From: an uncultured Gammaproteobacteria bacterium | GTDB taxonomy: Bacteria; Patescibacteriota; Microgenomatia; Levybacterales; UBA12049 | DNA: 64,000 nucleotides | Assembly: GCA_964507055.1 (NCBI GenBank) | Contig: CAZDOJ010000001.1 | Span: 13,210 to 77,209 of the forward strand | Direction of reading: 5' to 3' | Shown: piece by piece, positions 24,983-62,697 of the stretch | Layout: every line of letters begins with the position of its first letter | Numbering within the stretch: the stretch's first letter is position 1 | Made by a program: the position numbers and the translations under genes | Notes under the pieces: model-generated | The model's database searches: none | Told to the model about the DNA's origin: nothing | Seen by the model: only the letters and a program-made list of their open reading frames with translations

Positions 24983-24991
24983 CGCAAGATT

Positions 24992-27016: not shown

Positions 27017-27052
27017 TCTTTTATTCTTGATAAGTGCTATAATACTACTTTT

Positions 27053-28978: not shown

Positions 28979-29135
28979 AATGTCAGGTAGTATCTCTCTT
29001 TTTCATGTTATAATTCCGCCATGCCAAATATCGTGGGAAGAGATTGGAGGGGCATATGAGATGAGGGACCGAGTGGTAATCATAGGACTTTGTAGAACTT
29101 GCAAAAACCATAAAAATATCCTATAATATTAAGCT

Positions 29136-32129: not shown

Positions 32130-32170
32130 AACTTATAGCAAGGAAAGCATGAGTTTGATATACTTTCACT

Positions 32171-33298: not shown

Positions 33299-33346
33299 AT
33301 GATTTAGCCCATTGCGATAATCCAATCATGTCTTTATAATGCCCCT

Positions 33347-33679: not shown

Positions 33680-33754
33680 TAGGACATACAGTTTGGTATT
33701 TATAAGTATTTGAGGCAATAGCATATTTTATATTGACATGATATACTCCCAGCT

Positions 33755-35056: not shown

Positions 35057-35115
35057 CTTCTAAATATTTCTCCTCACCTTGAAGCTGCGTACGCATAGTG
35101 TTATACTTGTCGTTT

Positions 35116-36297: not shown

Positions 36298-36347
36298 ACT
36301 ATCCCGTAGTAGCCAATTGAATTCAGATTTGTTACAATACACCGATT

Positions 36348-37661: not shown

Positions 37662-37666
37662 TATAA

Positions 37667-38845: not shown

Positions 38846-38846
38846 T

Positions 38847-39899: not shown

Positions 39900-39960
39900 T
39901 GGCCTATAATAGTTTTATTTTTAATCATTTCATGGTATAATCCCAAAAGACAAGCCATCC

Positions 39961-41019: not shown

Positions 41020-41054
41020 TTGCTTTTTGTGCCCAATTTGTTACAATACCGCCT

Positions 41055-42089: not shown

Positions 42090-42116
42090 TCAAAATGAAT
42101 TTGGTATAATCCCCAC

Positions 42117-43289: not shown

Positions 43290-43319
43290 TTATTATTTAA
43301 AAAGAATATAATCCCGTCA

Positions 43320-44513
43320 ATGACTGAACGATCTGCAAAATCACCTGCTCAGGTGGAAGGGGCCGTGGCTCCAGATGGCAAGAAAAAACCTGTTTCCCTT
43401 TTCTTTGTTTCGCATCATCCTGCACAAGGATACCAGCTCGACGGATGGAGAAGAAAGATAGAAGATATCCTTGATTCTACTCCAAAAGGAAAAGTTGTAG
43501 TTTTTACAGAGAATGCTGGGCAAAGCCATAGGCATTCCAATCTTACTCGACAAAATGTTGCTAATGGTGATCTACCATCAGATGCCGTTGAAAAAAGTTT
43601 CCGAGAACTAAATGATCATTATCGAAGTCATGGGGTTGAATGGGCCTTGAGTGATGAGAGAGTAGCAGAACTTCTTGAGAAAGGAACAAAAACATTTACT
43701 GGCATATCGACAGCTATACTTGATGATATTGCTGCTCGTTATCCTGGAAGAATAGATCTCGTTGAGGAATGGGAAAGTCGCAAAGGACATCAACTTGAAC
43801 ATGATCTCTACAAAAAGGATACTCCTCAGCGAAATACAACCCTAAGTGCTGTTATGTCTTTATTTCCTCAAGGACGTAGAATTTTGGCTGCTGAGGGTCG
43901 AGAAAAATTGGCATCCGAAGCTGCAATATACCGTGAACGTGAGGAAACATCTGCACGAATTATTAGTGATGCATTAGAACAACCCGATACTATTGCGGCG
44001 GTTGGCTGGATGGGTGCAATACATACTGGACTGAGCCATGAGCTCACTCGAGAGGGTCATCCAGTAATGCGTGTATTTCCAGAGCGAGTAGATGGAGAGC
44101 CATATCTTTTTCCGCCAGGACATACGCTCCTTCGTGCCAAGCGTTTTGATCCGGATAAAGAATTAACTGATGATGAGATCGTAACGGCTGAGCAGGCTGA
44201 TCTGAAGGGAATGCATAAACAATTTGGTGATCCACGGATCAATCCAATTGGTTTTTTTATGCGGTATAAGTCTCAAAAAGAAGAAGTACGCTCAGGAAAA
44301 GCACAGGCTTCTATTCGATATGCTCAAGAATGGTATAGACGAAAAATGGGCAAACAGGCATCAAATGAAGAGCAAGTAAGTACAAATAGACAACTTCAAG
44401 AATCAGTTACGGTTGCCCCAGATATAGCAGAGCCCCCACTTGGCGATCTGAATTCCGATATAGATTGGGGAGAGTCTGGACCCGATGCAAATGGACCAAA
44501 ACGGTCACTCTAA
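43320..44513 (+). CDS. Tag-bearing island protein 14 (family A).
   Basis: It ends 'SDIDWGESGPDANGPKRSL'. It has 'KKKPVSLFFVSHH', 'GKVVVFTENA' and 'AVGWMGAIHTGLSHELTREGH'. Confidence 0.65.
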   Translation: MTERSAKSPAQVEGAVAPDGKKKPVSLFFVSHHPAQGYQLDGWRRKIEDILDSTPKGKVVVFTENAGQSHRHSNLTRQNVANGDLPSDAVEKSFRELNDHYRSHGVEWALSDERVAELLEKGTKTFTGISTAILDDIAARYPGRIDLVEEWESRKGHQLEHDLYKKDTPQRNTTLSAVMSLFPQGRRILAAEGREKLASEAAIYREREETSARIISDALEQPDTIAAVGWMGAIHTGLSHELTREGHPVMRVFPERVDGEPYLFPPGHTLLRAKRFDPDKELTDDEIVTAEQADLKGMHKQFGDPRINPIGFFMRYKSQKEEVRSGKAQASIRYAQEWYRRKMGKQASNEEQVSTNRQLQESVTVAPDIAEPPLGDLNSDIDWGESGPDANGPKRSL

Positions 44514-44556
44514 GCCTGTAATAGTTAAATAGTATATTTTTTGTTATAATCCTTCG

Positions 44557-46401
44557 ATGGTAGAACAATCAAGAAGAATTGCACCACAGGGAAGTCGTAC
44601 TTTTCGTGGTACAGATGTGTCCGCAATGCATGCAGAAATGCAAGGTATCCTTACGGCTTCGAGAGATAATGATCCGCATGCCTCCACAATAGACTCATAT
44701 AGAAAGATTGCTGATGCACTTCCTCTACGGGTTCCAGCTGCTACATACCAAGCCGTTAGTGAATCTATCAATAATCCTGATCCCGTGATTTCAAAAGCTG
44801 GGAAGGAAGTTTTTACTTGGCTAAATATAAAGACTGTAATTTCAGTTGCAGAAAGATATTCGGGAGAAGGTTTGGGAGATGTTGAAGATTTCGCTCAGGA
44901 AGGGGTTACTATCCTTTATGAAAATGTAGACACAATTCATCAGAGGGCAGATAGTTCTATGTATACTTATCGTTTGGCTGAAGAGGCTCTGACTAATAGT
45001 ATTGCTCGTGAGCATGGATTTAGTGTTACTATGAGCGAAAATAGAGTTGCATTACCTATTGGTCAGACCGTGACTGAATTATTTGATAATGCTCCCTTAG
45101 GGGTTGATGAAGTAGGGCTTGAAAGGCAAGCAGTAGTATTAGCACAGAAATTTGGAATTACTGAAGATGCTGCATTTAAATATCTCTCAAGGAGGAGTGC
45201 ATTGCAGCCAATTCACGAAAGTAAGATGCAGCCAGAACGTGAGGATACAGAGGTAATAGAAGATATTATGGTTTTAGATGAGCTTCTGAGGATGCTTCCT
45301 GAAAGGAATGAACAAATGCTGCGGATGAGATTTGGGAATGGTTTTACACTAGATGAAATTGCCCAACGCTACAACCTGGTTCCTGAACGTGCTCGTCAAA
45401 TAATTGCTAAAACAATTAAATCATTACAGCATGAGCAAGTTATCGATTTTGTTACAGGGGGAGTTAAACCCGCATCTCGAAGTCAGCGAATAATGACATC
45501 AGATGGAGAAGAGGGGCAGGATATTGAAGATGTCATCCGCGAAAAGCGTTTGGCTGGATATGGTGAATCTGGATCAGGTTCGTGGGCTGAATCTAGAAAG
45601 GAATTGGCTAATATTGCACATGCATTCTTAGCTGAGCCGCAAATTGGGTATCCGGAAATTGCAAATAGGCTTGGAATTACAGTAGATAAAGTAATTTATA
45701 GTGTACAAACTCTTCGTTCAAAATATTTGTTACCAGATGCTAATGCAGGTAAGCATGCAAAAATAACTCCCGATGATGGCAACAGAACATTGCAGGAAAG
45801 ACTACATTCACGATATGAAAGACAAGAATCCGAGATTGTAGTTCCGCCAATTCAGGGGGAAAGAGAAACAAGTACTATCCCAGCAATTGAGGACACTTCT
45901 TCTAAATCGAAACCACCATCAGAAAGAACACTTCGTGCTTTAATTTTGCAAAAACAAGCGTGGAAGTTACAGCAAGAAGACGGAAAAACGTACGATGAGA
46001 TTTCTGAAATACTCAATGTTAGTCTAGGATCCATACGAAGATATCTTCAAAACGAACGGCGAGACCTTGGTCTTGCAAATCAGACGAATGTCGGACGTCC
46101 TAAAGATCCTGAGGTGCAAGCTAGAAGAGCCGTTTTGGCTGAGAGAATTAAAGCTGGTGAGCCTCTTAGAGTTCATGGATTTGCTAAAGAGTTTGGTACT
46201 ACTGTAGGTACTATAAATTTTGATATACGTGAAATTTTGAGTGGATATCATACTTCTTCATCAGAGACAACAATATTTTCTCAAGAAGAACATGCTTCGC
46301 AACAGCCTAAACTTGAGGAGCCAGAGGTTACGATCGCTGATGTAGCTGTCGATTGGGATGGTACCGATGATCCTGAAGCAGGTCCTCAACGAACTTTATA
46401 A
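44557..46401 (+). CDS. Tag-bearing island protein 15. It is a sigma-70-family-like protein (regions 2 and 4) with a roughly 330-aa C-terminal extension that contains an extra HTH.
   Basis: The region-2-like segment is 'ISVAERYSGEGLGDVEDFAQEGVTILYENVDTIH...SMYTYRLAEEALTNSIAR'. The region-4-like segment is 'LDELLRMLPERNEQMLRMRFGNGFTLDEIAQRYNLVPERARQIIAKTIKSL'. The extra HTH is 'KTYDEISEILNVSLGSIRRYL'. It ends 'VAVDWDGTDDPEAGPQRTL'. A 'TGTTATAAT' box lies 6 nt before 'ATGGTAGAA'. Confidence 0.65.
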   Translation: MVEQSRRIAPQGSRTFRGTDVSAMHAEMQGILTASRDNDPHASTIDSYRKIADALPLRVPAATYQAVSESINNPDPVISKAGKEVFTWLNIKTVISVAERYSGEGLGDVEDFAQEGVTILYENVDTIHQRADSSMYTYRLAEEALTNSIAREHGFSVTMSENRVALPIGQTVTELFDNAPLGVDEVGLERQAVVLAQKFGITEDAAFKYLSRRSALQPIHESKMQPEREDTEVIEDIMVLDELLRMLPERNEQMLRMRFGNGFTLDEIAQRYNLVPERARQIIAKTIKSLQHEQVIDFVTGGVKPASRSQRIMTSDGEEGQDIEDVIREKRLAGYGESGSGSWAESRKELANIAHAFLAEPQIGYPEIANRLGITVDKVIYSVQTLRSKYLLPDANAGKHAKITPDDGNRTLQERLHSRYERQESEIVVPPIQGERETSTIPAIEDTSSKSKPPSERTLRALILQKQAWKLQQEDGKTYDEISEILNVSLGSIRRYLQNERRDLGLANQTNVGRPKDPEVQARRAVLAERIKAGEPLRVHGFAKEFGTTVGTINFDIREILSGYHTSSSETTIFSQEEHASQQPKLEEPEVTIADVAVDWDGTDDPEAGPQRTL

Positions 46402-46442
46402 TTTATCTTTCCGCCTCATCCTATGGTATAATCTTGCCCAAT

Positions 46443-48695
46443 ATGATTGAACGGAGACCTCAAATGAAATCGGCAGTCTTTACCGGAGATGTTGATGGCA
46501 TTGATCCTTATGGTACATTGGCAGAATATGTAAAAGTTATTGATACTGTGGCTGCGATTCGCACTCCAGAAGATCGTATTCAGGCAAGACATGTATTACG
46601 TCGGATGATTATTGGATTTCCTCCTCACATTTCTCCCGCAGCTTTCATTAAAAATGAACATGCAGAGCTTGCTCTTACAGATGAAGAGCGAAGGATACAA
46701 GAACAAGATACAATTGATAGAAAAGCCAAACAAGAAGCAATTGATGCAGATATTGCTTCAGGTACATATCCTTGGCAAGCACATGCACGGCATAATGAAG
46801 AAAGCAGAGTCAATACACATCTCATTGGGTTTTACGGAGATGAAGCTTTACAACCACTCTATGGACCTCCTTATTTTGAATCAACTCACGGACAAAAAGA
46901 AGTCCATTTAATACATTTGGATATCAAGCCAGTTGAGGGAGAAGTGCGAAAGAGTGCACATTGGGATGCGTTACCAGAAGATCTTCGAGAACAGTTTGAG
47001 GGAGGATCAATCCCAATCACCGGAACGACTGACCTTTATGCATTAACAGATGAGGAATTAGACAACCTTGCAGTGTCCGAAGATCCATTCAAAATGCAAA
47101 AGCATATAAAAAAGAAACTTGCTCAAGCGGATGATGGATATTATGTTTTGTATTATAGTGATTTCCGCAATCCAGGAGGGAGAACTGGTGTCCTCATGCA
47201 ATCAAGGGATGGAGATATGCAACCTGTGACCACGAAAATTGGTGATGATGAATTTCTCATTGAAGCCAAATCGATAGGGACAAAATATGGTGGATTTGGA
47301 GGAAAGCATCGTCGTCAAAGTGGAAATGATGTCATTACGGGTGGGGGGACTGCTAGAGAATCCGTACGTGAAATTGAGCGCTTGGAAGAGACTGAATTTC
47401 ATGATGGTCCTCAACCAGTTGGTGCTATAACATTTCGCAACGAGGAAGGTGAAGATCAAGGTGTACTGCTTCGACTTACACCGTCAACTGTTCGTGCTGC
47501 TTTTACTATGCCAGATGCATATCCGAAAATTGATTCCCCTGATATTGCAAAGCGGGTTTTCGATATGTATACACAATTATTGGCTGATCAAACGCTTGGA
47601 GAAAATCCTTATATTATAGGTGCTCAATCTTCACATACGGAAAATATCCTCATTTGGAAAGATACGTATGGCTATACAGACTCAGCAGATAAAGCAGCTT
47701 TTCATGATGGTTCAGTGGTGAGTTATGAGAAGGACTTCAAGTTGCGTACGCCTAAAGAGTTTCTCATAGAATACATTGGGCTCGTAGGATATATTCCTGG
47801 AAGGAGCAAGGTAGAAAAACAATACTTTATTGATGGGCTTACTCGAGCTTTTGCCTCTCATGGCAAAAATATTGACCTCCATCCTGAAGATTATGATTTT
47901 GAGATTGCCGAAAAGCTTTGGGCAGAAGGGGGAATTGCATATTCTGTATTTAAGGCTAGAAGAGAACGAGGATTTGTGGCAGATGGAGTACTTAAAGATT
48001 TTACTGATTATGCTGCAAAGGTGAGAGATATATTTGGCGAAAAAGCAATGGGTTCTGAAGAATCATTTAAGCAGAGGATGGAAGATATGGTTGCAACTGT
48101 GAAGAAACAGCTTCTTGAGAAAAGAAATAAAACCAGTGACATTGACGCCCAAAGAGAAATCAATAGTATATTAGCAGAACTCGGAGGAAATAATTTTTTG
48201 AATGGAAGTAATGGATATGATCTCATTTCGAATACGTTTTCACAAAATCATGGAGAAACACAGGAAGATAATGAGCTTATTCAAAACGCTGAAGATATTA
48301 AGACGATACAACAGCTATTTTTCATACATGAATTATATTTCGATCATGAAAGTGATGTAGTATCTGGTGCGTTGAAAAGTTGCCCTGAAGAAGAACGTGA
48401 AAATGTTGAAGATGCAAAAGCGGAGGTTGGTCGAAAACTAGATGAAGCATTTATACTTCGCACGCCAGAAGGACTTTATCGAGCTCTAACAGATGCGGAA
48501 TATGTGCGAGAGTTGATAACAATGGAGGTATATTCACAAGGCTCAGAATTATCTACAGATATTGAAGCTCATCCCGAACAAGTGATCTTCGATCCACGAC
48601 AATATGGATCATCGACTGAGTTTTTTTTAGCTGATGCCCAGATAGACTGGGCTGGAATAGAAGATCCTGATCCTGGATCACAACGAACGCTTTAG
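46443..48695 (+). CDS. Tag-bearing island protein 16 (753-aa hypothetical).
   Basis: It ends 'AQIDWAGIEDPDPGSQRTL'. The ORF track starts at an upstream TTG, so the ATG at 46443 was chosen, 10 nt after 'TGGTATAAT'. Confidence 0.6.
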   Translation: MIERRPQMKSAVFTGDVDGIDPYGTLAEYVKVIDTVAAIRTPEDRIQARHVLRRMIIGFPPHISPAAFIKNEHAELALTDEERRIQEQDTIDRKAKQEAIDADIASGTYPWQAHARHNEESRVNTHLIGFYGDEALQPLYGPPYFESTHGQKEVHLIHLDIKPVEGEVRKSAHWDALPEDLREQFEGGSIPITGTTDLYALTDEELDNLAVSEDPFKMQKHIKKKLAQADDGYYVLYYSDFRNPGGRTGVLMQSRDGDMQPVTTKIGDDEFLIEAKSIGTKYGGFGGKHRRQSGNDVITGGGTARESVREIERLEETEFHDGPQPVGAITFRNEEGEDQGVLLRLTPSTVRAAFTMPDAYPKIDSPDIAKRVFDMYTQLLADQTLGENPYIIGAQSSHTENILIWKDTYGYTDSADKAAFHDGSVVSYEKDFKLRTPKEFLIEYIGLVGYIPGRSKVEKQYFIDGLTRAFASHGKNIDLHPEDYDFEIAEKLWAEGGIAYSVFKARRERGFVADGVLKDFTDYAAKVRDIFGEKAMGSEESFKQRMEDMVATVKKQLLEKRNKTSDIDAQREINSILAELGGNNFLNGSNGYDLISNTFSQNHGETQEDNELIQNAEDIKTIQQLFFIHELYFDHESDVVSGALKSCPEEERENVEDAKAEVGRKLDEAFILRTPEGLYRALTDAEYVRELITMEVYSQGSELSTDIEAHPEQVIFDPRQYGSSTEFFLADAQIDWAGIEDPDPGSQRTL

Positions 48696-48707
48696 AAATG
48701 TCAGGTT
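48691..48707 (+). repeat. Conserved intergenic element 'TTTAGAAATGTCAGGTT' that overlaps the stop codon.
   Basis: It recurs nearly identically at 50764-50780, and a related 'CTAGAATGTCAGGTAG' lies at about 28974-28989. It always sits directly after a tag-encoding 3' end and about 30 nt before the next -10 box. Confidence 0.5.
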
Positions 48708-48722
48708 TGTTGAGCTAAATTT

Positions 48723-48731
48723 TGCTATAAT
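48723..48731 (+). promoter_or_regulatory. Extended -10 'TGCTATAAT', 6 nt upstream of the ATG at 48738 (leaderless arrangement).
   Basis: It is representative of the island's promoters. The same arrangement occurs at 42102-42110, 44542-44550, 50796-50804 and 53562-53570 (TGnTATAAT-N6-ATG). Coordinates are approximate to +/-1 nt. Confidence 0.5.
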
Positions 48732-48737
48732 CCCCGA

Positions 48738-50768
48738 ATGAAAGAACTACTCAGAGCGAGAAAATCATTTTTGAGAGGAGAACCCCTCCGTCATAATCCT
48801 GGTGATGATGATCGGACCCAGGATAAATTTGCTAACGTACCACATGGTGGTCCCCAAAAAGAAGGAAGATTACCAGGAGAAAGAATTAGTGATCAACAGC
48901 GTGATGAGGTGCTATCCGGAGTTCTCAATAGTGAAGTAAAGATGCTCGTTTTGGCGGGAATGGTTCTGGACCCTGAAGTATACACTGCTGGAGATCTCGA
49001 TAGTATGATACGGGATATGCAACGTGGACAAAAAGGTTGGAATTTAAGTAGCAACATAGCATTCGGGTACTGTCTCAATTCTTTCGATGGGATTGGACTA
49101 GTCGCAAAAAGTGAACCTGTAAACGATCGGACGACCTTGGGATTTAAAGCAACACAAAGAGGCAAAGACACGTTACCAGTTATTGGACATCTCTTGGATT
49201 TCTCACTGAAACATCCAGATATAGCTTTGCGGCGTGTCTTTTCAACAACTGCTTCTCCTTCAAAGGCCACGGCTGAAGGCGAACAAGCTGGAGACTATAA
49301 AGTCCGTGCTCCCAAAAGACGATTTCGTATTCTTAAAGCACTCGTCGAGAACGAGGGGCCACTACGTGAGTCAGATATGCGAAAGCTTGTAAATAATTCA
49401 TCTGTTGAGTTGCATCTGGAAAGCCTTCATAACATTGGGCTTATAACTTATGAGAACACAAGAGTTGGTGCAGATCATATCACCTATACAGTTATTCCAG
49501 ATGCTATCTCTGATGTTCATGCTCTGCCTTCTATTCCAACGTCAACCGATAACCAGCTGCAATTACGTGCAGCATATATTACCTCAAAACTTTCGGGTGA
49601 AATTTCTCCAAAAGATGTATATGAACGATTAGTCGCTTTATTCCCACAATATAAAGAACGGGATCCTCGTGGTACAGAAAAGGTAATAAATAGAAAGCTC
49701 CATCACATGTCAATGCATGGATTTATAGAAAAAGGGAAACGCACAATAGACCGAAAAACAGATATCTCAGTAACTGAAGAACAGCGAGAAACTATAGCTG
49801 AGATCGTGGGAATTATTGATGCATTTCAGGCAGGAGATCCGACATTCTTAGCAGAAGGAGAACAGAAAGCTCGACGAATTATCCAAAATCCTGAGGCAGC
49901 AGCTACTCTTATGCGTAAGGCTCAGGAAAGTTCGCATACAGCTCTTGCTCTTGGTCAAGCAGAATTGAAGAGAAGATTAGTGACTTTTGCTGAACAAAGC
50001 GAAGGTCCGATAACAAGTGTGCTTGCTGCTGAATATCTGGAGCATCGTGTGGGTAAAAGTTATGCTGGTGCGATATTACGAGAACTTGCAAGAGAAGGAA
50101 AGATACAGGTTGAATCACGGGGTCAAGTTATAAGATATGGTCCTGTCGCTCCGCAGGAACAAGAGATCCCTTTGCCTGAAGATAAGCGAGGTTTAGAACA
50201 AGTTGCAGTTACGGTAAATGCGGAGATTAAGCCATTTGCTGATGGTATCAAGTTGCTTCTTGCTGCATATGCTTCACATACCGATCCTCAGTCAGAATCA
50301 GCTCTTGAAGTAATGGATCAAATTCGTTCTGTACGAGCACTGCCTGAATATGCACATCTCATTTCGAAACGTGATCAGATAGAACAACGGCTTGCTGTTA
50401 TTGCATCAGAAGAGGCTGGTATCGAGTTAGCGAATGAAGAACCCGTTGTAGAAACAGAAGTTGAGATGCAAGAAAATACGGAGGTTGTTCTGAAACCCCA
50501 AAATAGTCCAAAATCGAAGACAGTTGAGCTTCGTGAGCGAATTCAAGCCTTTAAGGATTTAGGAGTATCTGATTCTAGCGAAATTGCACAATGGATGGGT
50601 GTAAGTAGATCTACCATCACAAGACATATTCGGCAGATGCAAGCACAAGAAACACAAGAAGAACCCATACTTCCTGCAGTTGAAGATCAGCCATTAAGTG
50701 CATTAGATGCTGGGATTGATTGGAGTGGAGATGATGATCCTGATCCCGGTTTACAAAGAACACTTTAG
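48738..50768 (+). CDS. Tag-bearing island protein 17 (family C). It is a DNA-binding-like protein with a winged-helix-like segment and a C-terminal HTH.
   Basis: It ends 'AGIDWSGDDDPDPGLQRTL'. The N-terminal roughly 130 aa are paralogous to protein 18 ('...VLNSEVKMLVLAGMVLDPEVYTAGDL...GYCLNSFDGIGLVAKSE'). It has 'RRFRILKALVENEGPLRESDMRKLV' and the HTH 'SEIAQWMGVSRSTITRHIRQM'. Confidence 0.65.
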   Translation: MKELLRARKSFLRGEPLRHNPGDDDRTQDKFANVPHGGPQKEGRLPGERISDQQRDEVLSGVLNSEVKMLVLAGMVLDPEVYTAGDLDSMIRDMQRGQKGWNLSSNIAFGYCLNSFDGIGLVAKSEPVNDRTTLGFKATQRGKDTLPVIGHLLDFSLKHPDIALRRVFSTTASPSKATAEGEQAGDYKVRAPKRRFRILKALVENEGPLRESDMRKLVNNSSVELHLESLHNIGLITYENTRVGADHITYTVIPDAISDVHALPSIPTSTDNQLQLRAAYITSKLSGEISPKDVYERLVALFPQYKERDPRGTEKVINRKLHHMSMHGFIEKGKRTIDRKTDISVTEEQRETIAEIVGIIDAFQAGDPTFLAEGEQKARRIIQNPEAAATLMRKAQESSHTALALGQAELKRRLVTFAEQSEGPITSVLAAEYLEHRVGKSYAGAILRELAREGKIQVESRGQVIRYGPVAPQEQEIPLPEDKRGLEQVAVTVNAEIKPFADGIKLLLAAYASHTDPQSESALEVMDQIRSVRALPEYAHLISKRDQIEQRLAVIASEEAGIELANEEPVVETEVEMQENTEVVLKPQNSPKSKTVELRERIQAFKDLGVSDSSEIAQWMGVSRSTITRHIRQMQAQETQEEPILPAVEDQPLSALDAGIDWSGDDDPDPGLQRTL

Positions 50769-50810
50769 AAATGTCAGGTTCACTACAATGAAGTTTGTTA
50801 TAATCCCCAA

Positions 50811-53528
50811 ATGAAAGAACGATTTCGAGAAAGACGTATACAAAGGGAGGTTTTACGACATCATCCTGATCCGGGCGAACAGGATAAATTTTCGCAAGGT
50901 GGAGCACATCCTGAAGTTCCTGGTGAACGGAGAGAAAGAGTATCGACACAGAAGATTGATGAACTCCTGGCAGGAGTGTTTAATAATGAATCCAAGATGA
51001 TTGTCCTTGGTGGGATGATCCTCAATCCTCACTGGTATTCAGATCAGCAGCTTCATGATATGACAATGCGGATGCAACGAGGAGAGCGAGGATGGGGCAT
51101 TGGAAATCACATTCCCTTTGGTTACTGTCAGGATTCTTTTGATGATATCGGACTTGTTGCAAAAAATGAAATCGATGGGGCTCGCGATAGTTTAAAATAT
51201 CATGTGACCCAAGATGGTATTAGTGCACTTCCTGCTATTGGTCATCTACTTTCGTTTGTTGAAGAATCAGGCATCTCTTTGCATAGAACTTTCTCAACAA
51301 CGAGTACTCCTTCTTCAGCAGCGAGTATTGATTCTGAGGAAGAACATAATGATGATCGTGACATACGAAAACGTGCACCAAAGACAAGGTATAGAATTTT
51401 TAAACAATTACTTGCTCATGAAGGACCAATACAAAAAGTTGATTTACAAGAAAATCTCAACGTGAATGGGAGTTCTCTCGGGCACCATTTAAGAAACCTC
51501 AGTATTGAAGGTATGCTTGACTATCAAAGCTATTATGATGGTGAACCACTCGCTGTTACATATCGCATCAATGCAGATGCTTTTCAAAAGATAAACTATG
51601 ATGATCTTCCACGAGATGCAAGATCAACGATTACAACGATTACGAGACGAGTTGCTTTTATTGCTGCTCATATGGAAGGGACTGTTACTCCTGCTAAAGT
51701 GCATGAAAAATTGCTTGCTCTGTATCCTCAATATGCAGAGAGAACTGAGGGTCATGTTCGAAGCAGCGTGAATCGTGCCTTAACGCATCTTGCAAAACAT
51801 GAGTATCTACAGCGAGGAGAGATCTCTGCAGATCGTCCTTCATTAATCTCTTTAACTGATGAGCAGCGAGAAAGAATGCAACAACTTGTAACGATCATCG
51901 ATACATTCCAATCAGGTGATCCCGAATTCTTAGCACAAGGTGAGCAAAAAGCCCGCGAAATTTTAAATGATCCTCAAAGAGTAGCACGATTAATGAGACA
52001 CGCACAAGAAAATTCTAGAATAGCATTAGCTTTGGGGCCTGCGGAGTTAAAACAGATGATCATCGAAATCATTAAAGATAGTGACACACCATTATCCGGA
52101 GCGAGAATTGTGCCGTTGATGGACCATCGGATTGGACAGCCGTATGCAACAGCTTTATTAAAGCAATTATATGATGGTGGTGAAATAGCCTTGGTAAGTG
52201 AAGGAAGATCAAAATGGTATGGAAAACTTCAAGAAACAGGAGGTGTTGACGCATTACCCGAAGATAGAGATGGGTTAAGATCATCACTGCAACAAGTTAC
52301 TGCTGAATTTCAGCCATACGAAAATGGCCTGGGGCTTTTATTTGCTGCTTTAGACACGCATGATCCAGCGTCAGCAGATGCCCGAGAGGTTTTAAATCAG
52401 ATTGAATATGTCCGCATGGATCCTGAATATCGAAGACTTAAAGGTAGAATCGACACTATACAAGATAGGCTGGAGAGTTTCGCTGATGAAATTGAAGATG
52501 AAGCAGTTGCGGACGAAACTCAGGTTAGAAAAAGAACACCACGCCAAAGTTCGGTCGTCATTCGCCAACGGATAGATGCTTTTAGGGATTTAGGGATTAC
52601 CAATCAAAGCGAAATTGCACGTTGGATGGGCTTCTCTCCTGATAGTTTGAAATATCATTTCCAGTCGATGGACGATACGCTTAATAGAGCAATATCTCCT
52701 GAGCGAATGGCAAAAATTGATATATCCAGAGCATTGCGTGATCAGGATCAATTAACTCCCGCACAAATTGCAGAACGGATGGGTACCACTGAGAGTACAG
52801 CTCGTGCATATCTCGAACTTGCAGATGATGCTGAAAGGCTTGCAAATCAACGCGAAGTAACTTCTCCTTATCAAGATCGCCTTGTTAGAGTCCGCGAAAT
52901 GGAAGAAGAGTGGGGTGACATGATGCAAGTTACACCGATGGTTCATCAAATGGCTGCGGAGTTAGGCCTATCTGTTGCATCGATCCATAATTATCGAAGA
53001 GAACTTTTTGCGACACGTGCTCGAGCAGCAAGAGTACGGGAAGGCCAAATAGAACAGGTCCGAGCGATGACTGAAGAGTTACAGCAGCTTCCTAACCAAG
53101 AACGTGTATTAGTGATTGCTGAAAGACTAGGATTAAATCGATCAACTGTATATCGCTTTCAAGATAAAGCATTTGGAGTTGCAGAGCAAAGAAAAGTAGG
53201 AATTGCTGAGCGACGTGCACGGGTTGCCCAGCGTTCAGAAGAGCTTCGTGCAATGGGAATCCCTATAAAAGAAGCTGCAAAAGTTATTGCTGAAGAAGAA
53301 GGTGTCTCTCCTGGGACGATAATGTTGGACAGAAGAGCTTTATTACAATCACAGCGAGAAGCCACACAAGCAGAAAATCTATCATCTTCTGTAGAAGAAA
53401 CCATTGTTTATGAGGCAGATCATAGCTTGCCTGATCTTTCGTCAGAGCAATCATTAAATACCTTCAATGAAACAATTGACTGGTCTGGTGAAGATGATCC
53501 GGATATTGGACAACACAGGACACTTTAG
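50811..53528 (+). CDS. Tag-bearing island protein 18 (family C). It is a 905-aa protein with five tandem HTH-like repeats.
   Basis: It ends 'ETIDWSGEDDPDIGQHRTL'. The repeated HTHs are 'SEIARWMGFSPDSLKYHFQSM', 'QIAERMGTTESTARAYLELA', 'QMAAELGLSVASIHNYRREL', 'VIAERLGLNRSTVYRFQDKA' and 'KVIAEEEGVSPGTIMLDRRAL'. Confidence 0.65.
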   Translation: MKERFRERRIQREVLRHHPDPGEQDKFSQGGAHPEVPGERRERVSTQKIDELLAGVFNNESKMIVLGGMILNPHWYSDQQLHDMTMRMQRGERGWGIGNHIPFGYCQDSFDDIGLVAKNEIDGARDSLKYHVTQDGISALPAIGHLLSFVEESGISLHRTFSTTSTPSSAASIDSEEEHNDDRDIRKRAPKTRYRIFKQLLAHEGPIQKVDLQENLNVNGSSLGHHLRNLSIEGMLDYQSYYDGEPLAVTYRINADAFQKINYDDLPRDARSTITTITRRVAFIAAHMEGTVTPAKVHEKLLALYPQYAERTEGHVRSSVNRALTHLAKHEYLQRGEISADRPSLISLTDEQRERMQQLVTIIDTFQSGDPEFLAQGEQKAREILNDPQRVARLMRHAQENSRIALALGPAELKQMIIEIIKDSDTPLSGARIVPLMDHRIGQPYATALLKQLYDGGEIALVSEGRSKWYGKLQETGGVDALPEDRDGLRSSLQQVTAEFQPYENGLGLLFAALDTHDPASADAREVLNQIEYVRMDPEYRRLKGRIDTIQDRLESFADEIEDEAVADETQVRKRTPRQSSVVIRQRIDAFRDLGITNQSEIARWMGFSPDSLKYHFQSMDDTLNRAISPERMAKIDISRALRDQDQLTPAQIAERMGTTESTARAYLELADDAERLANQREVTSPYQDRLVRVREMEEEWGDMMQVTPMVHQMAAELGLSVASIHNYRRELFATRARAARVREGQIEQVRAMTEELQQLPNQERVLVIAERLGLNRSTVYRFQDKAFGVAEQRKVGIAERRARVAQRSEELRAMGIPIKEAAKVIAEEEGVSPGTIMLDRRALLQSQREATQAENLSSSVEETIVYEADHSLPDLSSEQSLNTFNETIDWSGEDDPDIGQHRTL

Positions 53529-53576
53529 TAGCAGCCTGTAGTAGAATTTTGAGCCTAAATTTGGTATAATCCGCAA

Positions 53577-56027
53577 ATGGTAGAACAAAGAGGACCAACT
53601 TCAGAAAAAGTTGTGACTGCAAACGGCCGTCAAGAACGTCGTAAGGGCCCGAAAAAGCGTGTAACGATGATCCACCTCATCCATACTGATGCTGCTGCTG
53701 AGGAGCATCTCACCCCATTTGAACAAGGTATTCGTGATGCCGTCCAAAGAAATCCTGAGCTTACTAAAAAAATTGGTGTATTCATGGAAGATACATCTAT
53801 GACAGCTGCTCAAACAGCTTTTATAAATGCTAAGATTTCAGCAGGCTCCCTTCCTTCAGAAGCAATGCTTGACTGGCATGTTAAGGAGTATCAGGAGCGT
53901 GAAAATGGGGCAGAACCATATGCGGAGGATGTTAAGAGACTTGGAGAAGTTCTTTCAACAGGATTTTATGGTAGAGCCAGAGAAATCGCAGATAGAACTT
54001 TTGCTGAATACCCAGGAAAACTTTTTCTTATTTCAGAAGGTCATGCTGAGCACACGCATGTTCATATTGATAAAGGACCACAACCGCAAACGAAACGAAG
54101 GGGGTTTTTCCCGAAACGCAAGGCTGAGGGACCCGCTCCTAAGAGCGAAGAAGAAATGTTGGAGGCAATGAAAGAGAGGATTGTGTCTTTATCATCCAGC
54201 CTTCGAGCTCGTGATACTAAGATAGTCCAAAATATCGACGAGGCACTGGCAAGAGATGACGTTGCTGAAGTGGTTGGATGGGTTGGGGCAGTACATACTC
54301 CCGTAGGGCATGAGTTAAGTAGGAAATATACAGTGAAGCGTATCTTTCCCGATAAGCAAGATGGTGTTTTTTTCTATTCTCCGGGACAACAGCTTACAAG
54401 GAAGGCAACAATGGATCCGGAATATATTCCTACTCATGCAGAAATTACTCAAACCCGTTTGTCTCACCAAGCCGCTCTTTCTGAGCTGAAAGCTGAAGGA
54501 GCAATCCCAGCAACCTATGACCGGCAGGGGCATGATGGTGCTATATCTCAACAAATAATTAGACGTGAATACGATTGGATGAAGAGGCAAAATACCCCTG
54601 AAGCTACTCCCAGGTTGGCAACTGTTGATATAGTGGCTCAAACTCTACGAGATCGGGAACAAGATTATGCGAGGATTAAGGCAGAAGAAGCCCGAGCTGC
54701 ACATCCGGACTATCCGTTTACACTGCGTATACAACCCGATCAACCAGAATGGGCGATTTTGAAAGCTGCAGGGATGTCTGCTGAAAAGATTAATTCAGGT
54801 ACATTTACTCGACAGGAATTACTCGATGCCGGCTTCTTATTCAAAAACACACTGAATTCAGGAGAAAAAGGAATTATAAGTGGAAAGATACCAGATCCAG
54901 AAGATCCAGAAAAAGAAATTGATTTTACAGGACGGAAGTTGTTAACGAGAGCGGAGGTAGAAATGGTATATGCGTATCAGCAACAACATCCTGAAGTTTA
55001 TGGACTACAAGGTCATGATATCGATGAAGTACGAAATGATATGTTGAGTTTCATGCGTGAAGCTGTGCGTACCGATCCCTTTGAATATAATAATGATTTT
55101 CTTCGTAAAGCACTTCCTTATGATCGAGCTCAAATGGGTTGGGAAATGGACTGGGAACAAGATGAGGCAGATCTGATAGAAAAATTCTGGAGAGCTGAAG
55201 AAAAGAAATATGTGCGAAGTGATCAAGATCCAGAAAAAACGAGAGATTCGAAATGGAGAGCCGCTTGGATACGTGTGAGAGAGAATTTTGCTCGAACACA
55301 ACTTGCTGATCTCTATACTTTGAAAGATGAAGGTACTAAAACTGCTTATTTTAACCGTAAAGAGGTGCGTGGTATCACAACAGAAACGAAAAATATGGTA
55401 CGTGGAGGAAGTGTTTTAAACGAGCCTTCGCCTTTTCTTGATAGTGGATTTTTCTTTGGTCGTAATATTGATATAGATCTTTGGATGAAAGAACAGACTG
55501 GTGATACTGAGGGCGTACACAGAAGGCTCAACGTAGTAAATGTCCATCTTATCGGTGCTCATCCAGAATTCCCGGGTTTTAGTGAAATGGGCACTCAAGG
55601 TTGGGATCAGCGATATATGACTCCAGGAGAATATGTACGAGAGCTCTATCCAGAAGATGAGGCAGTTCGTACCGCAGTACAGACTCAAGAAGCCACACTG
55701 GCTGCACAAGTCTTACATATAGATAAAATCATTAAAGAATCACATGTGCGATTACTAGCAGCTGTTAAAAAATGGGATGCGGAACGAGGAATATTAGGTC
55801 TAAAAGAAATTTTCAAGCGACCTGCATCAGAGTATGCTCCTCAGGCTAAAAATATTGTTGAAGGTGAAGACTATGGAGAAGCGTTACGGGTAGATTCCAC
55901 GGAAACAACAGTTGCGTCAGGAATGCCACAATTGAGCTCTGATAACACACCGCTTGCTGAGATTGATTTACAGATTGATTGGGGAGGAGAAGGAGATCCA
56001 GATCTTGGTGCACATAAGTCTCTATAA
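53577..56027 (+). CDS. Tag-bearing island protein 19 (family A with a roughly 450-aa C-terminal extension).
   Basis: It ends 'LQIDWGGEGDPDLGAHKSL'. It has 'KKIGVFMEDT', 'SLPSEAMLDW' and 'VVGWVGAVHTPVGHELSRKY'. A 'TGGTATAAT' box lies 6 nt before 'ATGGTAGAA'. Confidence 0.65.
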   Translation: MVEQRGPTSEKVVTANGRQERRKGPKKRVTMIHLIHTDAAAEEHLTPFEQGIRDAVQRNPELTKKIGVFMEDTSMTAAQTAFINAKISAGSLPSEAMLDWHVKEYQERENGAEPYAEDVKRLGEVLSTGFYGRAREIADRTFAEYPGKLFLISEGHAEHTHVHIDKGPQPQTKRRGFFPKRKAEGPAPKSEEEMLEAMKERIVSLSSSLRARDTKIVQNIDEALARDDVAEVVGWVGAVHTPVGHELSRKYTVKRIFPDKQDGVFFYSPGQQLTRKATMDPEYIPTHAEITQTRLSHQAALSELKAEGAIPATYDRQGHDGAISQQIIRREYDWMKRQNTPEATPRLATVDIVAQTLRDREQDYARIKAEEARAAHPDYPFTLRIQPDQPEWAILKAAGMSAEKINSGTFTRQELLDAGFLFKNTLNSGEKGIISGKIPDPEDPEKEIDFTGRKLLTRAEVEMVYAYQQQHPEVYGLQGHDIDEVRNDMLSFMREAVRTDPFEYNNDFLRKALPYDRAQMGWEMDWEQDEADLIEKFWRAEEKKYVRSDQDPEKTRDSKWRAAWIRVRENFARTQLADLYTLKDEGTKTAYFNRKEVRGITTETKNMVRGGSVLNEPSPFLDSGFFFGRNIDIDLWMKEQTGDTEGVHRRLNVVNVHLIGAHPEFPGFSEMGTQGWDQRYMTPGEYVRELYPEDEAVRTAVQTQEATLAAQVLHIDKIIKESHVRLLAAVKKWDAERGILGLKEIFKRPASEYAPQAKNIVEGEDYGEALRVDSTETTVASGMPQLSSDNTPLAEIDLQIDWGGEGDPDLGAHKSL

Positions 56028-56078
56028 CTTGAATATAAGGCTAAATTCAACTATAATACCCCGATACATTAGATAACT

Positions 56079-57275
56079 ATGACTGAGACACGAAAACCAA
56101 GAGAACCCTTCAAATTGAGTAAGCCAGTGAACCCAGCATACAGAGCAGCTTCAAAAAGATGGTCAGACCATCCAACGGCTGTAGACTTCACCAATTATGC
56201 TGACTACCACTGGGTTGAGAAATTTAATGAACATTCCAGAGCTGGAAATAAAATTGCAGCATTAGGATGGTTGCTGGCAGGACAAACCCGAAAGTCATTT
56301 ATGACCCGATATGATATCGTAGGTCGAAATGAAGTTGCTCCTCGGATGAGTGATGCTCAAAAGCAGACAATCAGTCGTTTTGAAACAGTCCAAAAAGTAA
56401 CAAATATCATAAAACGTGCACTTGAAGATAGTGAGACAAAAAAGCGTAGACCAAAGGAGCCACTTAGACATAGAATTGCTCGGTATAAGGATGTTTTTGA
56501 TTCAGCGAGAGCAAAAAGAAGAGAGAGAATCGATAATGGAGGAGGACTTTTTAATACGGCATTTTCTACATTTGTTCCAGATAAAGGAATTGAAAATGCA
56601 TATAAGAGTAAAGTAGCACGGCAATATGGACCATCTGATGAGGAGTCTGCTCAACAAGGGGTGGCTGAAAAAGAACCTAAAAACACTTTTGATATAGGTC
56701 ACGGATTGACCGTAGACTTTGATCAAGCTCGAGATGCTGGACTTGATGCCGTAGAAGGTAGATTGGGGCCGATAACTGGAAATGAGACTAACCAGGAACT
56801 AAATGCTCGAAAAGCAATCGCTGCAGAAGCAAGAAAAAAGGATATTCAAGGCCAATTAGATAAACAGCGTGCAGATTTTGATGCTGGACGTGAAAGTCAG
56901 GGGCTTGATCCAGTAGATCATGCAGGAGAACCAGATGCTGATGCTGCAATAGCAAAATACCTCGAAGCAAAAAAGACAACGTCGGAGACTCCGCAAGCTT
57001 CTGTACCGGATATGAAGGGTGTAAAAATAACAATGCCAGGATTTCTCAAAAGAGATCCTGATCGAAATAAAACCTTTGAGGAACGTACACTTGCAGAAGT
57101 TGCTAAACGTGTTGCAGAAGCCGAAGCTGCGAAACAGGCTTCAGTTTCCCAAAATCGAAATGGTATGCCTGAGTTATCAGATGATCAAAATGTGCCGCTA
57201 TCGACTCTGGATGAAAGTGTACAATGGGATGGCTCTGACAGTCCACGTGGGGTCGATGGGCCAAAGATGCGATAA
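56079..57275 (+). CDS. Island protein 20 with a degenerate tag. It is a basic, Lys/Arg-rich hypothetical protein.
   Basis: It ends 'ESVQWDGSDSPRGVDGPKMR'. It is the last plus-strand gene of the array and is convergent with the minus-strand operon, with a 4-nt gap. Confidence 0.55.
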   Translation: MTETRKPREPFKLSKPVNPAYRAASKRWSDHPTAVDFTNYADYHWVEKFNEHSRAGNKIAALGWLLAGQTRKSFMTRYDIVGRNEVAPRMSDAQKQTISRFETVQKVTNIIKRALEDSETKKRRPKEPLRHRIARYKDVFDSARAKRRERIDNGGGLFNTAFSTFVPDKGIENAYKSKVARQYGPSDEESAQQGVAEKEPKNTFDIGHGLTVDFDQARDAGLDAVEGRLGPITGNETNQELNARKAIAAEARKKDIQGQLDKQRADFDAGRESQGLDPVDHAGEPDADAAIAKYLEAKKTTSETPQASVPDMKGVKITMPGFLKRDPDRNKTFEERTLAEVAKRVAEAEAAKQASVSQNRNGMPELSDDQNVPLSTLDESVQWDGSDSPRGVDGPKMR

Positions 57276-57279
57276 CTTC

Positions 57280-58797
57280 TTAAAGTGTTTTCGGTAGATC
57301 TTGATCAGGTTCATCTTCTCCAGCAAAATCAACTGCATCGGTAGGTATTCCATGCTCTGACGCAAAGAATATAGGCATAGCAGCTTTCGTTATCTGAATT
57401 TGTTCTGGTTTTTCTGTAACCTTTGGTTTTGGAGTAATTTCGTCTATCATACCTAATTTTTCTGCTTCATCGCGAAGAGATGGTGCACCTAATGCTTGTG
57501 TGATCGCTGATGAAGACGTATCAATTACTTCTTCAGGCTCTCCAGAAGCTCGAATTTGCTCAACAGGAATACCTCCAATTTCAGTAATTTCATGTGCATA
57601 GCGTAATGTCCCATCAAGATTTTCAATAATTGCAGGTTGTGTCTCTACTTGAGTTTCGGGCTTTAGGCGGATTCTTTTATATTCGTATTGTTTTATCTTT
57701 TTAGGCCTTAGTCGTCCTTTGAGATATCGCTTGATGCGTCCTTCTTCGCCTGCTTCTTGATCTTCAGCTCTGGCTATCTCAGCAACTTCTTTTGTTCCAT
57801 CGTTCAGTGGTCGCCCTGCTATAATTCCTTGTGTCGAAGGTGGTGTAAATCCATTTTCTGTATAGAGCTGCTTCATTCTCGCCGCGTATGTTTTGTCTAC
57901 TTCTTCAGCCTGGCCGTAATCTCCTTGCAAATCAAAACCGAGCATTCTACGAAACTCATCACGTCTCCGTTCAACAATATTTGAAAGATTATCATCTAAT
58001 TCGATGGATGGATTTCCGCCTTTTATCGTTTCGCCTAGTTCAGGGATTTGGGCCATCCATGCATCATGAGCTCTTGCTGCTTCAGGGTGAAAGAGACGAT
58101 TATATCCATTCCATGGAGCAGCTTCGATAGCTGCAACCCATTTTTGGATTATTGCACGACGCTCCATGTATTCAGTGCGAAGTCGGTCACGATCTGCGAT
58201 CTCTTCAGCACTTGAACCAAGCGGATCCCATGGAATAAATGCGACAGTACCTGTAGCTCTGGATTTTCCATTTTTTCTTGGACCAAATAACACACCTCGC
58301 TGATGATCGGGATTTGCAACCGGACATCGACAGGAATAGGTACATACTTTTACTTCACTCTTGGGAATTATTTTATCAGGGGAGATATATACTTTTGCTT
58401 CATCAGTTAGTTCATCAAGGAGCTCTGTTGCAATACTGAGGGAGTCTGTTATCCCGGCTGCCATATCTTGCTCAGTTAATAAGTCCTTGGCTTCAAGTAC
58501 TGCCTGTTTGCCGAGGCGAAGTTCATGCCTTGTCGGTTCTGTTGAAGTTTCAGTGGCCGTTTTTTCTATATCCGTAGGGGAAATACCATGCAGCATTGCA
58601 GCAGTTACAAGTCCATCAGTTGCGAGTCTTCTTGCATCTGGATCATCAATCTGTTGAGCACTAACTAACGCAAAAGAAATAGGAAGCACATATCTATCTG
58701 CAAGTTCTCTCTCAGATTGAGCTGTCCGCTCTCGTGAAGCAGCTGGAATTCCATCCGGATGTGGATGTCTTGGTCGGAATCTATCAGGAGTGTTCAT
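57280..58797 (-). CDS. Tag-bearing protein 21 (minus strand), translationally coupled to the upstream VirD4-like ATPase.
   Basis: It ends 'DAVDFAGEDEPDQDLPKTL'. Its ATG lies 1 nt after the TAG stop of the ATPase gene. It has a Cys cluster 'CTYSCRCPVANPDHQRG'. Confidence 0.6.
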   Translation of the reverse strand: MNTPDRFRPRHPHPDGIPAASRERTAQSERELADRYVLPISFALVSAQQIDDPDARRLATDGLVTAAMLHGISPTDIEKTATETSTEPTRHELRLGKQAVLEAKDLLTEQDMAAGITDSLSIATELLDELTDEAKVYISPDKIIPKSEVKVCTYSCRCPVANPDHQRGVLFGPRKNGKSRATGTVAFIPWDPLGSSAEEIADRDRLRTEYMERRAIIQKWVAAIEAAPWNGYNRLFHPEAARAHDAWMAQIPELGETIKGGNPSIELDDNLSNIVERRRDEFRRMLGFDLQGDYGQAEEVDKTYAARMKQLYTENGFTPPSTQGIIAGRPLNDGTKEVAEIARAEDQEAGEEGRIKRYLKGRLRPKKIKQYEYKRIRLKPETQVETQPAIIENLDGTLRYAHEITEIGGIPVEQIRASGEPEEVIDTSSSAITQALGAPSLRDEAEKLGMIDEITPKPKVTEKPEQIQITKAAMPIFFASEHGIPTDAVDFAGEDEPDQDLPKTL

Positions 58798-58798
58798 A

Positions 58799-62551: not shown

Positions 62552-62697
62552 ATTTTTGGTATATGTGTAAGAAATGATGATTATAACATAGGATATGATT
62601 AATGAAAAGCTTGGTAGATTAATGTGATCAAAAAATCATACAGAAATCATACATCCTGTAGTAGTATTTTTACCAGTTTTTTGATAAAATATCCACC

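Follow-up and report, generated by a model that had tools for sequence, protein, structure and literature searches.

Paired winged-helix and helix-turn-helix proteins that share a C-terminal tail in a Patescibacterial gene island around a VirD4/TraG-type coupling protein

A 64,000-nucleotide stretch of a Patescibacterial genome (contig CAZDOJ010000001.1, positions 13,210 to 77,209; hereafter the window) contains two neighbouring genes, p17 and p18, whose products combine winged-helix (WH) and helix-turn-helix (HTH) domains and end in a common C-terminal tag, within an island of similarly tagged genes that also encodes a VirD4/TraG-type type IV coupling protein (T4CP). An earlier reading of the letters alone (the original prediction) had described p17 and p18 as tagged paralogues made from WH and HTH modules. 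This description holds, as the two open reading frames (ORFs) lie exactly where they had been placed, both tails are present (Table 1), and the proteins align with 40% identity over 647 residues (BLASTP, E 5e-144). The region that they share, which had been put at roughly the 130 N-terminal residues, was found to extend over ~620 residues, nearly the whole of p17.

To describe the architecture of these proteins, we relied on an AlphaFold2 model of p18 made from a 149-sequence family alignment (mean predicted local distance difference test score, pLDDT, 84.2; predicted template modelling score 0.63), the model made from the single sequence being unusable (pLDDT 40.7). In the alignment-based model, four WH domains are followed by a helical hairpin, five tri-helical HTH units and a disordered tail, and the domain limits in p17 were carried over from p18 via the alignment. 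The N-terminal part is therefore of the winged-helix type, as originally described, but is made up of four consecutive WH domains and not of one, as judged by both the model and profile matches to the PDB. In the PDB profile search, WH2 matches ArsR, HlyU and MarR structures, WH3 a SarA homologue (9e-6), and WH4 the WH domains of Fur, MCM and penicillinase repressors. WH2 also carries an ArsR-type recognition-helix signature, S..HL..L...G(L/I), which aligns to the ArsR structure 6j05, and residues 191-236 of p18 are matched by Pfam HTH_5 and HTH_20 (the latter at 34.3 bits for the whole protein, cut-off 27). The segment RAPK.R(F/Y)RI(L/F)K.L...EGP, present as a single copy in each of the two proteins, marks the start of WH2. 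The hairpin that follows the core is also found in the aligned close tagged relatives P0002, P0004 and P0135 (these and the locus names used below are our own handles).

Since only the winged HTH cores of WH2 and WH3 match, and do so inside a chain of four WH domains, p17 and p18 share a fold with ArsR and MarR proteins without belonging to their families. The repressors of the ArsR/SmtB and MarR families consist of a single winged HTH with dimerisation helices in 100-150 residues, together with metal-sensing sites in the case of ArsR/SmtB, and the model NF033788 reached 27.2 bits against a cut-off of 55. When the p18 model was compared with the PDB using Foldseek, the best match was the four-WH RNA polymerase III subunit C82/RPC62 (7z1l_O; E 2.9e-4, probability 0.91), and other matches were likewise to multi-WH scaffold subunits (MukE/F, UFL1-DDRGK1 and CSN). 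As the C82/RPC62 superposition gave TM-scores of only 0.08-0.12 (root-mean-square deviation ~31 Å), this likeness appears to be one of architecture rather than a sign of homology; neither C82 nor RPC62 appeared among the PDB sequence-profile matches of p17 and p18.

The count of five HTH units in p18 and one in p17, as first proposed, was confirmed by the model, by Pfam and by position-wise conservation. The array in p18 contains fifteen helices in five helix-helix-turn-helix groups (residues 579-624, 630-672, 674-733, 736-788 and 790-859), in which pLDDT averaged over blocks of 10 residues lies mostly at 83-97, dipping to 62-74 at three of the unit boundaries; LGLNRSTVYRF is an example of the tri-helical type. 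Scanned whole, p18 passes the Pfam gathering thresholds of HTH_29 (38.7 bits; 28.1), HTH_23 (37.4; 24.6) and Sigma70_r4_2 (33.3; 25.7). Scanned singly, unit 2 matches Sigma70_r4_2 (1e-5, 25.4 bits, cut-off 25.7) and unit 4 matches HTH_23 (2e-4, 21.3 bits, cut-off 24.6), while units 1, 3 and 5 give no Pfam match and are supported by the model and by conservation. The single unit of p17 is orthologous to unit 1 of p18 (44% identity, E 2e-14). Membership of the sigma-70 family is defined by regions 2 and 4 together, and p17 and p18 carry a region 4-like unit (Sigma70_r4_2) alone. At E<=1, Pfam gave on both proteins HTH- and WH-type matches and a few marginal unrelated ones; no DDE or serine-recombinase catalytic domain was found among these or in the model, which is made of helices and WH folds, in agreement with the original prediction.

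Table 1. Positions of the main features in the window, with residue numbers in the protein concerned.
Feature	Nucleotides	Strand	Residues	Basis and remarks
Extended -10 promoter-like element of p17	48723..48733	+		TGCTATAATCC; TATAAT ends 6 nt before p17 ATG
p17 coding sequence	48738..50768	+	676 aa	ORF listing; N-terminal LRHNP...DKFA motif, four WH domains, helical hairpin, one HTH unit, acidic tail
p17 four-WH core	48888-50147			Counterpart of p18 core
p17 helical hairpin	50148-50417			Counterpart of p18 hairpin
p17 HTH unit	50514..50657	+	593-640	HTH_38, 29.1 bits (cut-off 27), scanned alone
p17 tail	50658-50765	+		Ends IDWSGDDDPDPGLQRTL; counterpart of p18 tail
Extended -10 promoter-like element of p18	50796..50806	+		TGTTATAATCC; TATAAT ends 6 nt before p18 ATG
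p18 coding sequence	50811..53528	+	905 aa	ORF listing; layout as p17, with five HTH units
p18 disordered N-terminal segment			1-44	Model
p18 four-WH core	50943..52229	+	45-473	Model secondary structure and pLDDT, PDB profiles, Pfam, Foldseek
p18 WH1			46-153	Model
p18 WH2, ArsR-like			189-253	Model and profiles
p18 WH3, MarR/SarA-like			276-347	Model and profiles
p18 helical linker			350-401	Model
p18 WH4			410-471	Model and profiles
p18 long helical hairpin	52230..52496	+	474-562	Helices 486-516, 522-535, 538-560 (model); net charge -11
p18 five tri-helical HTH units	52542..53384	+	578-626, 627-673, 674-735, 736-789, 790-858	Model, Pfam, conservation
p18 disordered acidic tail	53385..53525	+	859-905	pLDDT <50; net charge -11; ends IDWSGEDDPDIGQHRTL
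Tagged-gene island, part in window	24938..64000	.		C-termini; 20 tagged ORFs, T4CP, tagged ORF from 62698 running off the end
Tagged sigma-70/extracytoplasmic function-like protein	44557..46401	+		TIGR02937 3e-24, Sigma70_r4 2.7e-16; regions 2 and 4 both present, extra region 4-type HTH units
VirD4/TraG-type T4CP	58799..62551	-	1250 aa	PF02534 5.4e-29, TraG-D_C 8.9e-10, TrwB_AAD_bind 8.6e-9, NF045973 4.6e-20

The difference between one and five units had been attributed to expansion by internal duplication in p18. Comparison of five-unit proteins from four islands (n=5: p18, P0002 at L001:10001, L001:7669, L012:3028 and L027:7523) points instead to loss in p17. Across these proteins, each unit scores 30-46 bits against the unit at the same position and only 3-14 bits against the others, implying that the array is old and that each of its positions is distinct; the four other proteins retain in unit 4 a helix of the G(I/L)xRAT.Y type (GIAQATVY in P0002). 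In a neighbour-joining tree of the cores, the p17/p18 clade has a bootstrap of 100. With the same support, p17 nests with two of the five-unit proteins, and P0004, which lacks HTH units altogether, nests with another two at a bootstrap of 99. By parsimony, these placements imply a five-unit ancestor with losses in both lines, so that p17 most likely lost units 2-5 and P0004 all of its units. A more ancient duplication may lie behind the array itself, given the weak similarity between its units. The array also shows no significant similarity (E 0.095) to the extra HTH units of the tagged sigma-like protein encoded nearby.

We used a profile made from p17, p18 and P0002 in an exhaustive search to define the wider family of the four-WH core, which recovered 791 cluster representatives at E<=1e-3, with 222 remaining when the threshold was set to E<=1e-30. 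Nearly all members are stand-alone proteins of 430-470 residues (typically ~445) that span the whole four-WH core. Among the best 150 matches, 127 are shorter than 478 residues, and none of these 127 bears any of the four tail patterns known from islands. The species-representative genomes that encode the family are Microgenomates, Levybacteria, Saccharibacteria and ‘Patescibacteria group’ metagenome-assembled genomes (MAGs), with distant relatives in actinobacteria at 23-27% identity. This distribution, like the GC content of 40%, fits a Patescibacterial origin of the window. Homology to the stand-alone members P0010, P0011 and P0013 covers the core (profile positions ~40-470, E 1e-67 to 1e-41), in which N58, E60, K62, W95, R188, P190, H226 and Q352 are near-invariant. 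Neither Pfam, NCBIfam nor PADLOC holds a family for the core, the last two returning only HTH-level noise (Csa3 and the HTH tails of CARF proteins). This unnamed Patescibacterial four-WH family is the only one to which p17 and p18 truly belong.

The stand-alone proteins share with p17 and p18 the four WH domains and the helical linker, but are encoded by solitary genes and lack the island tails, the HTH array and a motif at the N-terminus, (L/Y)x(R/Q)HHP(D/E)P...DKF(A/G)G, found in p17 (residues 1-50), p18 (residues 1-44), P0002, P0004, P0005, P0095, P0135 and P0145. This HHP motif occurs in tagged members with three of the four tail types and is missing from the E-type members inspected, from P0029 and from the stand-alone homologues inspected; the segment that carries it is predicted to be disordered and may be a second signal. 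The best explanation of these differences is that the island versions gained the N-terminal HHP segment, the hairpin, the HTH array (of five units ancestrally) and the acidic tail. The island's closing gene, in the genome from which the window comes, encodes P0029, a third paralogue of 562 residues that has no HTH array.

At 13 stand-alone loci, no neighbouring gene family was common to three or more, so that genomic context yields no clue to function there. Distant four-WH homologues of ~440 residues occur in Kribbella sp. NBC_00889 (L026, 5905-7233) and in Sporichthyaceae MAGs (L023 and L024); the divergent neighbour of the Kribbella gene is a PrimPol-helicase fusion (XPB-like helicase 8e-15, PrimPol 6e-14), which suggests a mobile or conflict-system context for this homologue. 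Two tagged relatives, L001:4438-7389 and L001:16861-19839, contain the whole ~450-residue core twice in tandem, and the two copies of the first are each other's closest relatives (bootstrap 99). Word-index searches were less productive than the profile: p17 returned itself and one relative, p18 was not returned, a 9-module alignment gave p17 alone, and the T4CP returned only itself. An alignment of the tagged clade found no relative in the contigs of species-representative genomes, and two scans of metagenome contigs gave no matches.

The tag at the ends of p17 and p18 conforms to the motif IDWxG..D.D.G..R(T/S)L (also written IDW.G..D.D.GP.R(S/T)L), which occupies 17-25 residues within a disordered tail. 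The same motif ends 18 further ORFs of the window (24938 to 58797), making 20 in all, and the island continues for ~21 kb past the window (L028 and L030, from the same genome) with 12 more tagged genes; in all, 13 further tagged genes lie on the far side of the T4CP, which is therefore not the end of the island. The whole comprises ~33 tagged genes over ~70 kb, with the coupling protein embedded among them, and takes up ~5% of the 1.3 Mb genome. Beyond it come an untagged gene and housekeeping genes (a HIT-family protein, ribosomal protein S21, YbeY and DnaX), and its GC content does not differ from that of the flanking housekeeping DNA. The island and its flanks contain no relaxase or integrase, no replication gene and no tRNA attachment site. 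A protease or PDZ gene is likewise missing from the island, and neither an Rfam family nor a tRNA was found in the window.

At the thresholds used, only 4 of the 20 tagged proteins of the window have a Pfam match. The tagged sigma-like protein that the original prediction had noted near p17 and p18 is one of three with WH or HTH domains (four of the ~33 across the island, P0029 included), so that the proposed strong enrichment for DNA-binding cargo was overstated, although these three are among the four with Pfam matches. A sigma-70-like protein accompanies four-WH proteins in the window and in L001, L027 and L033. Among the tagged proteins of the window, the sole match to an enzyme domain is that of the product of 27053-28978 (Pyr_redox_3, 3.8e-10; pyridine nucleotide-disulphide oxidoreductase). 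Six other tagged proteins (ORF starts 38784, 39961, 41055, 42117, 43320 and 53577; spans 38784-44513 and 53577-56027) form a paralogous family, alike at 26-36% identity over their first ~300 residues and without a Pfam match, and ORFs 32171, 33755 and 36348 form a second small family. Elsewhere in the window, two adjoining genes on the minus strand (1381-4812) encode large proteins with signal-peptide-like N-termini and similar dockerin-like tails, ...DDN(D/G)V(V)N..DYNLF(I/L)RE(I/L)S.Q.G, a C-terminal module distinct from the island tag.

The coupling protein itself has its ATPase part at about residues 670-1190, with a Walker A motif (GPTGQGKS) at 692, preceded by an N-terminal extension of ~650 residues that includes a long stretch rich in Ser, Thr, Asp, Glu and Gln. 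Its own C-terminus (...KGKDDGPPKLGK) is faintly tag-like. An orthologue in L014 is 34% identical (E 6e-82) over the ATPase part only, the N-terminal halves being unrelated. Here, in L001/L014, the same layout recurs: co-directional tagged genes are followed by a convergent tagged gene, the T4CP and one more tagged gene, similar in its N-terminus to the window counterpart. The tails in L001/L014, however, are all of a different type (L type, EP.IG....SIA..E...K.K(S/T)K). A third island, L027, has L-type tails as well, three of the five complete genes of L033 carry an E-type tail, IF..YG(I/L)(D/E)...PPE(V/I)(E/D)E, and family members in other lineages bear a D-type tail, ...DDRDRD. At least three other tail types are thus found on the same cargo families, four-WH and sigma-like (L001/L014, L027, L012 and L033; proteins P0004, P0145, P0032 and P0106), implying that the address label is private to each lineage while its linkage to the T4CP is kept in a second lineage. 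The WxG of the window tail was also considered as the WXG motif of type VII secretion, and was set aside because it is absent from the other tail types and because VirD4/TraG models match the ATPase.

Upstream of p17 and p18 we identified extended -10 promoter-like elements. Their consensus, TGNTAYAATMC, has nine matches (27035, 36330, 39933, 41039, 42102, 44542, 48723, 50796 and 53562), where 0.6 would be expected, and all lie on the plus strand in intergenic gaps of the island. For at least seven of these nine, the end of the hexamer lies 6-9 nt ahead of the listed start codon. At p17 and p18 its position 6 nt from the ATG implies leaderless mRNAs, and the pattern as a whole implies that island genes would be transcribed singly as leaderless mRNAs. 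These sites have no -35 hexamer, which is why a generic sigma-70 scan missed the island promoters. An identical 15-mer, TAGAAATGTCAGGTT, stands at the same distance upstream of both genes (48693-48707 for p17 and 50766-50780 for p18). A second element, CCYRTARTAG, has five plus-strand matches (36303, 39903, 44515, 53535 and 62655; 0.52 expected) and lies 27-30 nt upstream of the extended -10 at the four sites with a matched element; it may be the binding site of a dedicated sigma factor or regulator. At that upstream position p17 and p18 carry TAGAAATGTCAGGTT and not CCYRTARTAG.

How might these proteins act? In Patescibacteria, a type IV secretion system (T4SS) is essential for epibiotic growth, as shown in the only member amenable to genetics, it has no relaxase, and its substrates are not known (PMC10633639, PMC12102498, PMC12857230); our literature searches found no account of such substrates or of these tails. 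The reading that we favour, while giving it a little less than an even chance, is that p17 and p18 are secretion substrates recognised by the coupling protein and bind DNA in a recipient cell. Under this model, the tail would act as a lineage-specific recruitment signal and would be read by the coupling protein, probably via its non-conserved N-terminal half or its all-alpha domain. The coupling protein would then hand over the tagged proteins, in unfolded form, to a type IV channel whose genes lie elsewhere in the genome. Finally, once inside the recipient (host) bacterium, the proteins would use their WH and HTH modules to bind DNA over a long footprint and, together with the co-delivered sigma-like protein, would alter transcription or nucleoid organisation.

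As expected of secretion substrates, p17 and p18 share an unstructured C-terminal tail with the rest of the ~33 island proteins and are linked to a VirD4/TraG-type coupling protein. Export is favoured by the presence of one label on many unrelated proteins, by the swap of this label between lineages with the ATPase linkage kept, by the disorder of the tail and by the investment of ~5% of the genome, and also by the Patescibacterial T4SS being essential, free of a relaxase and without known substrates. DNA binding is favoured by the ArsR-type recognition helix of WH2, the HTH profile matches, and the basic character of WH3 (isoelectric point, pI, 9.2) and HTH unit 4 (pI 10.6). Several observations weigh against this reading. 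No transmembrane helix, and hence no membrane anchor, was predicted by hydropathy for the T4CP, and no T4SS channel genes (VirB4, VirB6, VirB8 or pilins) were found in the window or the ~21 kb beyond, so that the channel is assumed, not seen. A distant T4CP homologue in Southlakia is not essential (PMC12102498). Furthermore, p17 and p18 are acidic overall (pI 5.4-5.5), with an acidic WH1, hairpin and HTH units 2 and 3, and the best fold match, C82/RPC62, is a WH array of a kind that often serves as a protein scaffold.

The first alternative is that both proteins work at home, as transcription factors or nucleoid-associated proteins of the producing cell, with the tail as a degron or adaptor-binding handle read by a protease or a PDZ-type protein (the R-(S/T)-L end resembles a class I PDZ ligand) and with the ATPase in some other role. 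Such regulators would fit a core family whose members are mostly stand-alone, untailed and scattered among ordinary genes with no conserved neighbours, as well as the separate promoter-like element of each island gene, as in normal cellular genes, and the lack of a visible secretion channel nearby. It is harder to see why a handle of this sort should sit on ~33 otherwise unrelated proteins, almost none with a recognisable domain, why its type should swap between lineages with the T4CP linkage kept, or how ~5% of a 1.3 Mb genome could be justified for proteins tagged for co-degradation, and the island holds neither a protease nor a PDZ gene. We therefore regard this alternative as unlikely.

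The proteins might also be exported and yet not bind DNA, their WH and HTH arrays serving as platforms for protein-protein contacts, for instance on the host RNA polymerase or on other complexes of the host. The multi-WH scaffold subunits among the fold matches, with C82/RPC62 at E 2.9e-4, speak for such a role, as do the low overall pI, the several acidic HTH units and the failure of units 1, 3 and 5 to match HTH profiles alone. However, WH2 bears the ArsR-type signature and passes HTH_20, matches to DNA-binding HTH families were obtained for units 2 and 4 and for the single unit of p17, WH3 and HTH unit 4 are basic, and the helix of unit 4 is kept in relatives, all of which make a purely scaffolding function rather improbable.

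A conjugative origin would provide a third explanation, with the island being an integrative conjugative element or the descendant of one. p17 and p18 would then be DNA-processing or establishment proteins, acting either as accessory factors of the relaxosome or as proteins that travel with the DNA into recipients of their own species. Relaxosomes commonly include accessory proteins of the WH and HTH types. VirD4/TraG-type coupling proteins, to which the PF02534 and TraG-D_C matches point, are ancestrally conjugative, and conjugative systems translocate many plasmid-encoded DNA-binding proteins (PMC11288057). The want of a relaxase, integrase, replication gene or tRNA attachment site in the island and its flanks, the uniform GC content, and the general absence of relaxases from Patescibacterial T4SSs (PMC12102498, PMC10633639) leave little room for this possibility. 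Lastly, the notion that the HTH units are leftovers of IS630 or IS21 transposases or of serine recombinases, with catalytic domains decayed or elsewhere, which the original prediction had named as what would overturn it, draws on weak NCBIfam matches (IS630 1.1e-3, IS21 1.8e-3) and on Pfam HTH_7 and HTH_23, and is effectively refuted, as the NCBIfam matches do not extend past the N-terminal HTH (they cover positions 2-40 of a 299-position profile and 3-93 of one with 294, and reach 18 bits where the cut-offs are 100-160), the confident 905-residue model contains no DDE, RNase H-like or resolvase domain, both ORFs are intact, and the units are conserved by position across lineages.

Returning to coupling-protein-recognised substrates that bind DNA in a recipient, a bolder version of this reading, which we think doubtful, is that the island represents the first set of substrates to be identified for a Patescibacterial T4SS. 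In this version, p17, p18, P0029 and the sigma factor would together make up a ‘transcription take-over kit’ of nucleomodulins, injected by an ultrasmall epibiont into its bacterial host, where they would bind the host DNA with up to nine WH/HTH modules and redirect the host RNA polymerase. The tails would be private address labels, and their evolution would be coupled to that of the variable N-terminal half of the soluble coupling ATPase.

By itself, the original prediction is a modest observation on domain architecture; the island context makes the question of what a Patescibacterial T4SS transports directly testable. A tail found on ~33 clustered genes around a coupling ATPase, and swapped in relatives, provides both concrete candidates and a candidate signal for Patescibacterial T4SS cargo, and p17 and p18 are among the few island candidates with an interpretable fold. 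If exported, they would represent an epibiont that manipulates the bacterium it lives on through DNA or transcription, with effectors of a kind for which the known examples so far come mainly from eukaryote pathogens. Whether or not secretion takes place, the analysis defines a large four-WH family (~790 clusters) that is unannotated in Pfam and NCBIfam.

Among known systems, four consecutive (extended) WH domains are also found in C82/RPC62 of RNA polymerase III (7z1l_O, 2xub), comparable to other tandem-WH proteins (the SelB C-terminus and MukE/F), but C82/RPC62 shows no sequence homology to p17 and p18, appears to differ in domain arrangement, and has neither HTH array nor tail. The tri-helical units are of the type seen in IS630/Tc1 transposases, serine resolvases and sigma-70 region 4 (HTH_23, HTH_28, HTH_38, HTH_7 and Sigma70_r4_2), whereas p17 and p18 lack a catalytic or sigma region 2 domain, and five units after a four-WH core are foreign to those families.

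With respect to delivery, Xanthomonas X-Tfe effectors, which are delivered into other bacteria, bind VirD4 through a folded C-terminal domain of ~120 residues, the XVIPCD. Like the island, they form a diverse repertoire joined by a conserved C-terminal module; unlike them, the island proteins carry a tag of 17-25 residues in a disordered tail, and X-Tfes are cell-wall toxins rather than DNA-binding arrays. C-terminal signals read by VirD4 are also known from Agrobacterium VirE2, VirE3 and VirF (an Arg-rich tail), Legionella Dot/Icm substrates (the E-block) and the Bartonella Beps (PMC8714903). These T4SS substrates likewise combine a short, unstructured and charged C-terminus on unrelated proteins with linkage to a VirD4-type ATPase, and some of them, VirE2 and VirE3, have nucleic acids or transcription in the recipient as their targets, in likeness to the role proposed for p17 and p18. 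The island motif is, however, far more sharply conserved than the classical signals and wholly different from one related lineage to the next, the producing cell is probably a monoderm epibiont that would have another bacterium as its target, and translocation is here a prediction. By analogy, VirD4-read T4SS substrates and XVIPCD effectors appear closest to p17 and p18 in their presumed mode of action, from which the island proteins would differ in their short lineage-specific tail, their probably monoderm producer and their WH/HTH cargo.

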